Below, one piece after another: positions 1-6,212 of a DNA stretch of 6,212 nt (position 1 is the first letter of the stretch; every line of letters starts with the position of its first letter). A program made the position numbers and the translations under genes. The stretch comes from a virus (Duplodnaviria > Heunggongvirae > Uroviricota > Caudoviricetes), in IMG/VR virus record IMGVR_UViG_2778261674_000013, one strand, 5' to 3'. Below the pieces are notes generated by a model. The model saw nothing but the letters and a program-made list of their open reading frames with translations, searched no databases and had not been told where the DNA came from.

Positions 1-3
1 GTG

Positions 4-24
4 GGATATTCTGAAAGAATATCC
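4..24. repeat. Perfect 9-bp inverted repeat GGATATTCT-gaa-AGAATATCC at the window edge
   Basis: Seen directly: 4-12 is the reverse complement of 16-24, with a 3-nt spacer. Function unknown (hairpin or dimeric binding site). Confidence 0.3.
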
Positions 25-252
25 ATAATGTGGAGAGAATCTATTGAAGTGCATGGTGCCGGGTGCCTCCCGGTGAATTCAGTACCAGCACCTGAATCCG
101 CGATTATCCCATATACCTACTCGCTGATTGCCCCTCCGCACAGGGGGATTCACCATGCCAGTTTCTTTTAACAAACTCCCCGCAAACCAGAGAACAGTCA
201 ACCGCCTGAATTGTGAAGTATTTAAAAATTTCTCCCGCTAACTGATACCCGG

Positions 253-419: not shown

Positions 420-773
420 CTACCCCAGATGAGTAATCCGAAGTTCATCCATACCACAGGTCCTGGCTATTCTGTTGTACTCCTGAACAAGAGCAAATAA
501 TTCTGAATTAGCAACCATGAACTCATCGCAAACCCTCTGTATAGCATCACTATTCAGAATAATAACGTCTCTTCCCGAAAGACGATCAGGAGTACAGAAC
601 AAAACTGTCAAACGGCTGAAGGCCTTTGCTCGTGCTGCATTGACTATATCAATACGCTGCCTAAGGATGAAACACCCCGACGCCTCATCAATATTCACTC
701 TACCCACACCATATGAATGATAAATATTTAATGCTGAAAAAACTATTAGACCGTATAACAAACACTCAATCAA
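420..773 (-). CDS. Hypothetical protein (up to 117 aa) in the cargo slot downstream of the phage tRNAs
   Basis: Longest ORF in this interval, same orientation as the late operon. The upstream-most start is TTG with no obvious RBS, and the first in-frame ATG is at residue 86, so the true start is uncertain. No recognisable motif. Confidence 0.3.
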   Translation of the reverse strand: MIECLLYGLIVFSALNIYHSYGVGRVNIDEASGCFILRQRIDIVNAARAKAFSRLTVLFCTPDRLSGRDVIILNSDAIQRVCDEFMVANSELFALVQEYNRIARTCGMDELRITHLG

Positions 774-1283: not shown

Positions 1284-2105
1284 TTACCTAGTTACCTTTT
1301 TTAACTGCCGCTCAGCCCATGCTTCTTCAATATCAAACCGGGTCACCAGCGCATCATAGAATTTCTTAACTGTTTTTTCCCATGACGCGCGTGTTATCTG
1401 GTTTGTCACCTCGCATATAGCATTAAATGCCTCCGTTGATGGTAGTCTTTCATAGCCCCGACCACCACAACGCTGGCAGTCTCTGATAACAGGCATACCA
1501 CGTTTTACCGACTCTTCACGGTGAATGGCGACACCACGCCCACGGCAATCCTTACAGGCGGTGGAAACCTCACCCTTTCCGCCACACTCCGGACAGGCAA
1601 CTTTTACCACCTCCCTGACTTTTTTCCATTCTTCCCAGTAAGACGGATACACACCTTTCGTACACTTTGCCCATACCGGCGGCTTACCATCCGGATACTG
1701 GACCTTGTTTGTAAAAACTACGCTTTCAATAAATTTTTCCCCATAGCAACAAGGGCACTGCTTTTTACTCGCTGCGCTGCGGGCATAATCCTCAAAAGCG
1801 TACGAAGCCATAATGCGCATCACTAACGGTTTTATTTCTGCCGGAAGTTTTCTCAACGCCGCCACACGATCGCACCGACTGAGTGCATAATCTGCCAGTA
1901 ATTCTGTTGCCCGCGCCCTGTCATTCATACTGATGCCCATTTTCCCCAGGAACGCAGAAAACCCCATCTCAGCTCGATTCTGTGTCATGCCCTGCGCGGC
2001 CATCACATCAGTGATACTCAGCGCATCTTTTGACGTTGAGGCCGATGCATCGATCAGGCAAGGGGATTTTGGGGAGTAGTATTTCGGTAAATCTTCCAGT
2101 TTCAT
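1284..2105 (-). CDS. Late-gene antitermination protein Q-like (273 aa), zinc-ribbon rich
   Basis: ATG start overlaps the RusA stop (ATGA). Several Cys pairs (CPCC, CPECGG, CKDCRG, CQRCGG). N-terminus MKLEDLPKYYSPKSP and overall layout match what I recall of the Qin-type Q protein (QuuQ/YdfT family). Synteny rusA-Q-pR'-tR' supports the call. Confidence 0.7.
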   Translation of the reverse strand: MKLEDLPKYYSPKSPCLIDASASTSKDALSITDVMAAQGMTQNRAEMGFSAFLGKMGISMNDRARATELLADYALSRCDRVAALRKLPAEIKPLVMRIMASYAFEDYARSAASKKQCPCCYGEKFIESVVFTNKVQYPDGKPPVWAKCTKGVYPSYWEEWKKVREVVKVACPECGGKGEVSTACKDCRGRGVAIHREESVKRGMPVIRDCQRCGGRGYERLPSTEAFNAICEVTNQITRASWEKTVKKFYDALVTRFDIEEAWAERQLKKVTR

Positions 2106-4276: not shown

Positions 4277-4432
4277 TTACTCCTCAGGTTCGTAGACTGT
4301 GAAGACAGCGACCTCCATCTGGCCGGTTCGGATTCGTACCTCGCAGAGGTCTTTCCTCGTTACCAGTGCCGTCACTATGACGGTTAAACAGATGACGATC
4401 AGGGCGATTAACATCGCCTTTTGCTGCTTCAT
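4277..4432 (-). CDS. hokD: Hok/Gef-family type I membrane toxin (51 aa), HokD/RelF-like
   Basis: Protein MKQQKAMLIALIVICLTVIVTALVTRKDLCEVRIRTGQMEVAVFTVYEPEE is near-identical to E. coli HokD (RelF) as I recall it. Strong RBS AAGGAGAA sits 7 nt before the ATG. The ORF also extends in frame to an ATG at 4489. Confidence 0.85.
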   Translation of the reverse strand: MKQQKAMLIALIVICLTVIVTALVTRKDLCEVRIRTGQMEVAVFTVYEPEE

Positions 4433-4939
4433 AGCCTGCTTCTCCTTGCCTTTCGGCACGTAAGAGGCTAACCTACATGTGCAAAGCATGAAATTGGCCT
4501 CAGATTAATGTTAAGCGTCTTGCCGGACGCGTAATGTTAACTGGGGCTTTTCTCTATCTGCCTTTGGTGTTCATGCCTGAGACAGATAGCCTCAAGCACC
4601 CGCAGCCATTGTACTTAACTCCCGTTACCTCGCCAATATAAAATCAATCAGAAAGGCGATCCATAAGGACAATAGCAAGACAATAAATTGCCATTACCCG
4701 CAATAGCCAGCGCACATTTGAGGACCAGCACGACAACTTTCTGTATCGGACGTACACCAGTCCTGATAAATACAAGGCGGTCTCATCAGTGATGAGATGC
4801 AACTATTGAGTACAGTTTCTCTGATTTTTCTGTAAAACATGGAACACAACAACTAAATATAACTAGCACTTCTTAAGATGTACAAATTCAGAGTTAAGAT
4901 AACGTAAGCAGTTTTCTCAAAACTAAGTGTAAATTTTTA

Positions 4940-5056
4940 ATGAAGAGCAGTGCTATGCTCCTGATCATAAATTCATTGTTTGGAACTGGAGGAATATTTA
5001 GGTTGCTGGAGTGGTTGGTTGAATTTAAATCAACTAAGACAAAAACCAACAATTAA
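4940..5056 (+). CDS. Possible small protein (38 aa, MKSSAMLLIINSLFGTGGIFRLLEWLVEFKSTKTKTNN) in AT-rich spacer
   Basis: Hydrophobic N-terminal half and lysine-rich tail, like a small membrane peptide. No clear RBS; AT-rich DNA generates such ORFs by chance. Confidence 0.1.
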   Translation: MKSSAMLLIINSLFGTGGIFRLLEWLVEFKSTKTKTNN

Positions 5057-5246
5057 AGATATGTGGTATATCAGAAAACAACTATCCGTATATTACTACA
5101 GAATTAAATACTAGCAACAAAGCTGTCTTTATTGATTTTTTATTTGATATCGAAACAAATAAACATAAAATAACCAACTAATTAAAACAGAGACTCGACA
5201 ATGAGCCTCTATCTATTGTAACAGCACTTCCAAATTTATTTTAGTA

Positions 5247-5266
5247 AGATAATAGCATGGGGCATA
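5247..5266. terminator. GC-rich hairpin (7-bp stem ATGGGGC/GCCCCAT, 6-nt loop) just 3' of the 266-aa ORF; possible bidirectional terminator
   Basis: Seen directly. Plus strand follows with CTTTTAAA; minus strand follows with GCTATTATCT. It stands out as a GC-rich stem in AT-rich DNA. Confidence 0.45.
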
Positions 5267-5279
5267 CTAGCCCCATCTT

Positions 5280-6080
5280 TTAAACCGTTTCATCAAGGAA
5301 ATACTTAGACGAATCATCCTGTTTCGGTTGATATGTTTTTTTTGCAGAATTAAGAACTCTTCTTAGTTCTTTTCTTAACTCAGGTAAACGCTCCTGAAGA
5401 GGGTTAGAACACCATTGTGAAGGCAACCCTCTTATAATAGCTTCGGAACAAAGCGGTGAAATAAGTTTTTCCATTTGATAATAGAAAGTTTTTGCTCGAC
5501 TTACACGCATTGTGATCCTTTTTATTACATCTCTTTCAGACTCAATTCTAGCACTCAGATCTCTTAATCTACTCCATACCTTAGCATCAGCAATATATGT
5601 ATCATAAAGCATACACTCTATAAACGTGAAATTACTAATAAGTTCTTTTGCAATATACCCCCCCAGCCGAGAAGGAATGAAACTTGATGAAGCTGTTGGA
5701 TCTCCGTGATTTACGGTGAACAAAAACCTTTTATTGCATAAATCAACGAGAACTCGATGCGTGAAAGAGTCACCTATACCAATTAACCTTAACTTTTCAG
5801 TTATTACCGAACCATCGATTTGTCTGAATCCGGGATCGCTTGCATACGAAACGATAACATTAAGAATGTACAGCCTCAATAATTGCATTTGTGTCACAGC
5901 TAAATTCGAATCAAACGGGTTCGCAATAGTCGACGTTGACTCGCTATAAGTCAACTCAGTACCCAGTAATATAGCTCTAAATGCCTCATGACGTGGAAGA
6001 AGATACCTTCCTTGTTCTCTGAAAATTTGTACTGCTTTACCTGGACTCGTATACCCTCTTTCTAAGAACTCACGAGTCAT
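5280..6080 (-). CDS. Uncharacterised protein (266 aa) in the AT-rich cargo segment; candidate accessory, defence or toxin gene
   Basis: Long ATG-initiated ORF with no internal alternative start for about 60 codons. By eye it is clearly more AT-rich than the adjacent prophage core (not computed). Protein has no motif I can assign confidently: no HExxH, no canonical Walker A, no HNH. Confidence 0.6.
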   Translation of the reverse strand: MTREFLERGYTSPGKAVQIFREQGRYLLPRHEAFRAILLGTELTYSESTSTIANPFDSNLAVTQMQLLRLYILNVIVSYASDPGFRQIDGSVITEKLRLIGIGDSFTHRVLVDLCNKRFLFTVNHGDPTASSSFIPSRLGGYIAKELISNFTFIECMLYDTYIADAKVWSRLRDLSARIESERDVIKRITMRVSRAKTFYYQMEKLISPLCSEAIIRGLPSQWCSNPLQERLPELRKELRRVLNSAKKTYQPKQDDSSKYFLDETV

Positions 6081-6101
6081 ACGTAATGCTGATGAATCCC
6101 C

Positions 6102-6125
6102 TAATGATTTTTATCAAAATCATTA
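6102..6125. promoter_or_regulatory. Perfect 10-bp inverted repeat TAATGATTTT-tatc-AAAATCATTA, 22-45 bp upstream of the 266-aa ORF start; candidate operator
   Basis: Seen directly. The AT-rich palindrome is a poor terminator stem, so a dimeric regulator site is more plausible. Confidence 0.3.
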
Positions 6126-6139
6126 AGTTAAGGTAGATA

Positions 6140-6200
6140 CACATCTTGTCATATGATCAAATGGTTTCGCGAAAAATCAATAATCAGACAACAAGATGTG
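6140..6200. repeat. Nested palindrome: 10-bp arms CACATCTTGT / ACAAGATGTG around a central TTTCGCGAAA palindrome, same centre
   Basis: Seen directly: 6140-6149 is the reverse complement of 6191-6200, and the central 10-bp palindrome at 6165-6174 shares the centre near 6169/6170. Confidence 0.4.
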
Positions 6201-6212
6201 CGAACTCGATAT

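Follow-up and report, generated by a model that had tools for sequence, protein, structure and literature searches.

A 266-codon reading frame at an IS10 junction as the remnant of a split prophage gene for a candidate nuclease-ATPase defence protein

The DNA considered here (the window) is a stretch of 6,212 nucleotides (nt), deposited in IMG/VR as the Caudoviricetes record IMGVR_UViG_2778261674_000013, and it is the whole contig NOIC01000088.1 of the draft assembly GCA_002475595.1. Near one end it carries an open reading frame (ORF) of 266 codons (5280..6080, minus strand), which an initial annotation, made from the letters alone, had described as an intact gene of no assignable family for a candidate phage-defence or toxin protein. 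What was said there of the surroundings of the ORF largely holds: it lies on the operon strand, i.e., the strand of the hok, DUF968, rusA and Q-antiterminator genes, and a structured hairpin is placed just downstream of it (Table 1); this hairpin folds with -14.5 kcal/mol (z = -2.4 relative to shuffled sequences), is part of the cassette of the parent gene and occurs at intact loci too. Also correct were the statements that a Shine-Dalgarno sequence is missing, the closest purine run (AGGGGA) ending 16 nt upstream of the ATG and thus too far from it, and that P-loop, HNH and zincin motifs are absent, none being found in the 266 amino acids (aa) by Pfam, NCBIfam and PADLOC scans. The ORF itself, however, is almost certainly, as comparison with undisrupted copies indicates, a fragment of an 834-codon gene that was split by the insertion sequence (IS) IS10.

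Single-sequence scans of the ORF against Pfam, NCBIfam and PADLOC returned zero matches, so that the lack of a family stood for these collections, but it did not stand for PHROG, where the profile 14719 matches the ORF with E = 5.5e-86 over positions 579-832 of its 833. At the same locus E. coli GF3-3 carries an uninterrupted gene of 2,505 nt (L001 7131-9635; WP_112869014.1, "hypothetical protein"), situated in a Qin-like lambdoid prophage between DUF977/replisome-organiser genes and hokD, and the intact 834-aa gene is found at this prophage locus in five further complete E. coli genomes. Over the last 809 nt of the GF3-3 gene the window shows 0 mismatches (809/809 nt); the identity ends at 6088 and the divergence is complete from 6089. 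For this reason the ATG of the ORF is recognized as the internal codon Met569 (...DDVRLALR-M-TREFLERGY...), and the called ORF corresponds to codons 569-834 and the stop codon of the parent gene, with in-frame stop codons directly upstream of it, within the IS10 sequence. The ORF is 94% identical to residues 569-834 of P0001, the representative of the Enterobacteriaceae cluster at 90% identity. It was therefore intact in appearance only, since it covers just the end of the profile and residues 569-834 of 834, and possesses no Shine-Dalgarno sequence of its own.

The sequence that begins at 6089 is the outside end of IS10. It is 97-98.5% identical to the IS4-like ISVsa5/IS10 transposase copies present in 2,184 plasmids (Megablast), and the terminus, the antisense RNA-OUT, the MCELD... 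transposase start (ATG TGC GAA CTC GAT on the plus strand) and the 9-bp target duplication that mark IS10/ISVsa5 (IS4 family) are all there; the draft contig stops inside the repeat, so that no more than 124 nt of IS10 are seen. RNA-OUT was detected with 98.8 bits (gathering score 41; E = 1.9e-20), and its promoter pOUT directs transcription out of the element in the direction of the gene fragment, 54 nt upstream of the ORF. The palindromes noticed earlier upstream of the ORF are real inverted repeats, the first with perfect arms of 10 nt (6102-6125) and the second with arms of 18 nt (6140-6200), but they are structures of IS10 and not regulatory elements of the ORF: the second is accounted for by RNA-OUT, which occupies this place, and the first is located between RNA-OUT and the IS10 terminus. 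Likewise, the idea that the ORF might be translationally coupled to, or co-transcribed with, a gene beyond the window finds no partner, as the neighbour is the IS10 transposase gene on the opposite strand.

A simple insertion of IS10 after gene nt 1705, with a 9-bp duplication of CATTACGTA, predicts a 5' product that consists of residues 1-568 followed by TERSPHNFPKA. This peptide is read from the inside end of IS10, and the prediction served as a lead and not as a test. Exactly the predicted product of 579 aa is on record (WP_249819705.1), encoded on a 3.5-kb contig; the gene was therefore split and not deleted, and the 9-bp duplication with simple insertion is confirmed by this exact match of the protein record. 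In RefSeq both halves of the gene, i.e., this product and the 266-aa one (WP_249819703.1), are listed as separate "hypothetical proteins" and not as a pseudogene. The identical gene/IS10 junction was met in independent sequencing runs (L018, L020), and a search for it in GTDB representative genomes and IMG/VR gave no match. The target CATTACGTA fits poorly the hotspot consensus of IS10, NGCTNAGCN. Among IS10 insertion mutations the present case is a classic splitting of a gene, with pOUT facing the downstream fragment, and there is nothing unusual in it.

Which parts of the parent protein were left in the window? Structure prediction and comparison, as proposed in the initial annotation, gave a confident fold for the fragment alone (predicted local distance difference test, pLDDT, 88.9; predicted template modelling score, pTM, 0.85), and the fold recognized was a winged helix and not a PD-(D/E)xK nuclease. 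Confidence falls to 57-82 in the first 30 residues, and in the full-length model the IS10 cut falls inside the helix 563-576. The winged helix was identified by structure comparison as a three-helix bundle with a beta-hairpin wing; residues 98-118, in which a nuclease- or nucleotidyltransferase-type beta-hairpin had been suspected, are helical and form the helix-turn-helix of this domain, with no match to a nuclease family. About 130 residues follow the winged helix, they contain no repeats in the model, and the C-terminal bundle formed there has no Pfam, NCBIfam or PADLOC match. The part of the protein encoded in the window includes 31 invariant positions and is 44-67% identical across Proteobacteria. 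All that the remnant still encodes is part of the lid, the winged helix and the helical bundle (Table 1), the nuclease and the ATPase being on the other side of IS10. Cloning or mutating the 266-aa ORF, as was earlier proposed, would therefore test a dead fragment, both catalytic domains being lost.

It might still be asked whether the 266-aa ORF works as a stand-alone protein (in defence, as a toxin, as a neo-functional regulator or as a dominant-negative form) expressed from pOUT of IS10, and we consider this highly improbable. The frame is open and begins with ATG, yet this ATG is an internal codon placed within a helix of the parent, and it is preceded by no Shine-Dalgarno sequence at functional distance; the fragment is predicted to fold confidently on its own, but no catalytic motif is left in it. 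RNA-OUT and pOUT, a promoter known for transcription beyond IS10 into neighbouring genes, face the ORF, and the same allele occurs in several sequencing runs, whereas no stand-alone homologue of the C-terminal module was found by phmmer among 1.84 billion representatives. This search returned only 199 relatives, in which the module is always C-terminal in proteins of ~800-900 aa or belongs to fragments, the full-length relatives being all of 795-902 aa. Matches of 250 aa that resembled stand-alone forms were rejected, as their first residue is not methionine and the one inspected (P0144) is a contig-edge fragment whose frame is open upstream; Met569 was also rejected as a conserved internal start, since P0144, a distant relative, has leucine at this position. 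The remnant would thus undergo at most read-through transcription from pOUT, with poor translation, and we infer that it is a pseudogene fragment without a function of its own.

Table 1. Features of the window and disruptions of the parent gene; positions refer to the window unless gene nt or codons are given.
Feature	Position	Strand	Basis or remark
IS10/ISVsa5 outside end, first 124 nt	6089..6212	plus	terminal repeat, 6102-6125 palindrome, transposase start 6196 (MCELD...)
RNA-OUT, IS10 antisense RNA	6134..6203	minus	Rfam RF00240, full-length match
9-bp IS10 target-site duplication, one copy	6080..6088	none	CATTACGTA on coding strand; deduced from junction
Retained 3' part of disrupted 834-codon gene	5280..6088	minus	nt 1697-2505 of 2505; GF3-3 identity and PHROG 14719
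Partial ATPase lid/helical domain, fragment residues 1-60	5901..6080	minus	secondary structure of full-length model
Winged-helix domain, fragment residues ~68-136	5673..5879	minus	predicted structure; invariant wing motif PSRLGGY
C-terminal alpha-helical bundle, fragment residues ~138-250	5331..5669	minus	model; family-specific
Terminator-like hairpin	5276..5257	minus	3 nt past ORF stop; 7-bp stem, 5 G-C pairs
IS1A insertion	gene nt ~500-525		E. coli H7 (L003)
+1 T frameshift	gene nt 978		E. coli EC42405 (L002)
IS3-family insertion (HTH_Tnp_1 and rve ORFs)	gene nt ~1670; L017 8779-10000		Logan SRR21743721
IS10 insertion	gene nt 1696-1705		window
IS903B insertion	near codon 634		Serratia plasmids (L026, pCAV1492-199)

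The intact protein belongs to a family which is small, fixed in architecture and highly mobile. A word-indexed search returned 399 homologues, and the best 120 of them are mostly of ~815-860 aa with 95-100% query coverage (few are of ~700-790 aa); the hosts include Aeromonas, Cupriavidus, Pseudomonas, Thauera, Bordetella, Serratia and Vibrio. For the family alignments and scans 58-61 homologues were aligned, and profile counts are given out of 58. The protein is predicted, on alignment and an AlphaFold2 model of P0001 (93% identical to the parent; pLDDT 83, pTM 0.77), to be composed of a restriction-type PD-ExK nuclease, an ORC/Cdc6-STAND-like P-loop ATPase and a winged helix with a helical bundle. 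Invariant residues are N22/E23/T26/R27 and the PD-ExK triad D62/E75/K77 at the N-terminus, the Walker A motif G306-x-V308-G309-x-G311-K312-T313-T314 and the Walker B motif D438-N439-x-D441-Q442 (438-442). With the E. coli protein alone only sub-threshold Pfam matches were obtained (HSDR_N-type, 18.3 vs 25 bits), and scans across the members gave AAA_16 in 33/58, nSTAND5 in 26/58, HSDR_N_2 in 19/58 (best E = 4.7e-7), KAP_NTPase in 18/58 (E < 1e-3) and NACHT in 9/58; HSDR_N was found in 4 members, with P0252 above the cut-off. The curated cut-offs of HSDR_N, KAP_NTPase, AAA_16 and AAA_22 are exceeded in some distant relatives.

The nuclease occupies residues ~20-135 of the parent, i.e., it lies wholly outside the window, and the profile matches across the family and the invariant D, E and K residues mark it as a domain of HsdR_N type with predicted catalytic activity. 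Family-wide PADLOC scans matched DrmMI in 39/58 and the Type IIG restriction endonuclease-methyltransferase (REase-MTase) in 23/58 members, both confined to residues ~5-205, and these local, weak matches to nuclease heads are the only ones to PADLOC models. The family thus shares with the HsdR_N, Type IIG and DISARM DrmMI heads the matching profiles over residues 5-205 and the invariant D...ExK triad, but it has no SF2 helicase, no methyltransferase and no specificity subunit. As regards the ATPase, PDB searches with the single protein and with the profile returned only P-loop noise and no detectable solved structure, and the closest structural matches are replication initiators (ORC/Cdc6) and the transposition ATPases TnsC and MuB, with ORC/Cdc6 initiators outscoring every STAND protein. 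The likeness to ORC/Cdc6 (AAA+ base, lid and winged helix) is accompanied by a sequence identity of only 9-15%, and unlike these initiators the parent family adds the N-terminal nuclease and the C-terminal bundle and behaves as accessory cargo.

The order of domains also recalls Avs (AVAST) and bNACHT proteins, in which one chain likewise begins with a PD-(D/E)xK-type nuclease and continues with a P-loop NTPase in its centre and a winged helix behind it, and whose genes are likewise found in prophages and defence islands. There is some chance, although a rather low one, that the parent is a STAND protein of this type, whose C-terminal region senses a phage protein and thereby triggers oligomerisation and activation of the nuclease in abortive infection. 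In contrast to Avs and bNACHT, however, the parent family has a fixed effector, a conserved and not variable C-terminus, no large repeat sensor and an ATPase nearer to ORC/Cdc6 than to NLRs. The short region after the winged helix stands against the large sensors of characterised Avs proteins, and the sensors clustered in the STAND survey were of at least 400 aa (PMC13581612). Effector swapping, a hallmark of Avs and bNACHT, was looked for and not seen, as even the most distant full-length relatives keep the nuclease and the P-loop. No PADLOC Avs model matches the parent or its 58 relatives, nor was a bNACHT model matched, and no large C-terminal repeat sensor was found in them. Since the region after the winged helix is short, the conservation strong, the effector not swapped and the best matches of the initiator type, a model of DNA engagement is preferred over an Avs-like sensor.

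Fusions of effectors to KAP P-loop NTPases form another group with which the parent may be compared. KAP-effector fusions (EF_KAP) were shown to be anti-phage (PMC12632615). The group also comprises PifA and RADAR RdrA; the E. coli parent lies below the KAP threshold (no KAP_NTPase match, with P0210 and P0241 the relatives above the 20-bit cut-off), and the effector of its family is N-terminal and a recognisable restriction-type nuclease. Transmembrane helices are typical of many KAP proteins.

The gene is rare and mobile. Megablast of 5150-6088 found it in 8/5,426 complete E. coli genomes, with 99.7-100% identity, and the cassette is AT-rich (guanine plus cytosine, GC, ~0.37 vs ~0.52 in the prophage backbone). 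A paralogue of 47% identity occupies the same lambdoid hotspot between DUF977 and nin/Q in the opposite orientation. In Klebsiella, Enterobacter and Serratia alleles ~99% identical to P0001 at the aa level reside on IncFIB/IncFII conjugative plasmids, e.g., K. pneumoniae NZ_CP055120.1 (55651-58155; L025) and 9 other plasmids, near tet(A) and ars genes; P0001 itself shares ~93-94% identity with the prophage allele of E. coli. Recent movement between plasmids and a lambdoid prophage is implied. Further homologues are found bordering a Pf filamentous prophage of P. aeruginosa, as a solitary insertion between thrC and a type VI secretion system cluster in Aeromonas, and in the company of an integrase, an Mrr nuclease and Xre-RES toxin-antitoxin pairs. 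The homologue P0026 (58% identity; L023 10888-13004, ENA ERZ27235557) is directly upstream of SIR2-like and DUF87/HerA ATPase genes, a pair that looks like a SIR2-HerA defence pair, and the association is one with a defence island.

Such positions invite the question whether the parent works on behalf of its mobile element, loading onto DNA as an ATPase of ORC/Cdc6 or TnsC type and acting together with its nuclease in replication, recombination, maintenance or competition. The best structural matches, being replication initiators, TnsC and MuB, agree with such a role, and so do the position of the E. coli gene directly 3' of the prophage replication module and its presence on IncF plasmids. 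Nevertheless, service to the element seems improbable, as the gene is sporadic and dispensable, the elements persist after its disruption, it is met in both orientations, in unrelated elements and as solitary chromosomal insertions, its neighbours include defence and toxin genes, and its nuclease head is like those of restriction and DISARM enzymes.

Near-identical alleles of the gene were inactivated in at least five independent ways (Table 1). The IS3-family element is inserted 26 nt upstream of the IS10 site, where it yields an identical 266-aa ORF call together with a 568-aa 5' ORF; that unrelated IS elements lie so close to each other may point to a local insertion hotspot or be due to chance. 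A 5'-truncated form of 398 aa (P0273) is recorded on 58 contigs. These recurrent knock-outs hint at a cost to the host, no more.

The reading we favour is that the intact protein is a single-protein immune nuclease carried by mobile elements and acting in conflicts between them. In this proposal the ORC/Cdc6-STAND-like module would control assembly (oligomerisation) by binding and hydrolysing ATP, the winged helix and the C-terminal bundle would supply contact with DNA or a ligand, and the restriction-type N-terminal nuclease would cut DNA. As a whole, the explanation that joins the IS10-split remnant with an intact parent that is a probable immune nuclease of mobile elements is judged very likely, and its parts carry different weight. 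That the parent is a gene of defence or conflict is somewhat favoured; that it acts by a specific DNA-loading mechanism is doubtful; and the fullest version, an immune nuclease whose ORC/Cdc6-like ATPase, with the winged helix and the C-terminal bundle, loads on foreign DNA instead of recognising a phage protein and so licenses the PD-ExK head, with its cost explaining the knock-outs, is rather unlikely. The earlier proposal of a phage-defence or toxin protein accordingly fails for the ORF, a remnant without catalytic domains, and survives for the parent, a plausible defence candidate.

Several points weigh against this reading. DNA binding by the winged helix is suggested by its predicted fold, and winged-helix domains of STAND proteins often serve nucleotide-state switching and not DNA binding. 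The ATPase may belong to the STAND or to the ORC/Cdc6 clade. The link of the family to phage defence is plausibly that of a candidate, as far as sequence and context tell. The family has no full-length match to any PADLOC 2.0 model, and tblastn found no copy in any of 50,697 sequenced phage genomes. The three WP accessions searched for were not found in the literature or in the DefensePredictor supplements examined, where HSDR_N appears only in a Pfam domain table; a named system for the family was found neither in the literature, by accession or by architecture, nor in those same supplements. The count of disruptions comes with no background rate, the E. coli copies reside in a defective, decaying Qin-like prophage, and a gene of 2.5 kb is a large target for IS elements.

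Other features of the window were also noted. Immediately downstream of the disrupted gene lies a type I toxin-antitoxin system, hok/sok: a toxin ORF of hok/mok type in the 4277-4601 region of the minus strand (the 51-aa Hok, MKQQKAM..., lies within a mok frame of 70 aa; hokD in relatives) and the sok antisense RNA at 4427-4601 (Rfam RF01794, 115.7 bits). Between sok and the terminator hairpin extends a stretch of ~650 bp (4602-5256) with GC ~0.30 and no ORF above 52 aa, which the 8 E. coli genomes conserve together with the cassette. At the other end of the window a match to the STnc100 small RNA (1-187, minus strand, 108.9 bits) is truncated where the contig ends. Two tRNA genes of the minus strand (887-960 and 1068-1140), whose counterparts at the syntenic locus of GF3-3 are annotated tRNA-Arg and tRNA-Ile, are situated downstream of the Q antiterminator gene (1284-2105), whose product carries DnaJ-like CxxCxGxG zinc-finger repeats.

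For the window the outcome is corrective, as the "266-aa orphan" is an artefact of an IS10 insertion combined with a draft-assembly break, and RefSeq entries made from split halves of this kind can seed spurious orphan families. The ORF is almost certainly an ordinary pseudogene fragment made by IS10, and its parent family is a reasonable, uncharacterised candidate for defence. The by-product of the analysis is the description of a compact family of fixed architecture, in which a restriction-type nuclease is joined to an ORC/Cdc6-STAND-like ATPase and which is frequently inactivated. Should the family prove to be a defence system, the immune repertoire of nuclease-NTPase proteins would gain a member with a short tail that possibly senses DNA, and this would matter, in Klebsiella and E. 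coli, for plasmid biology and for susceptibility to phages.
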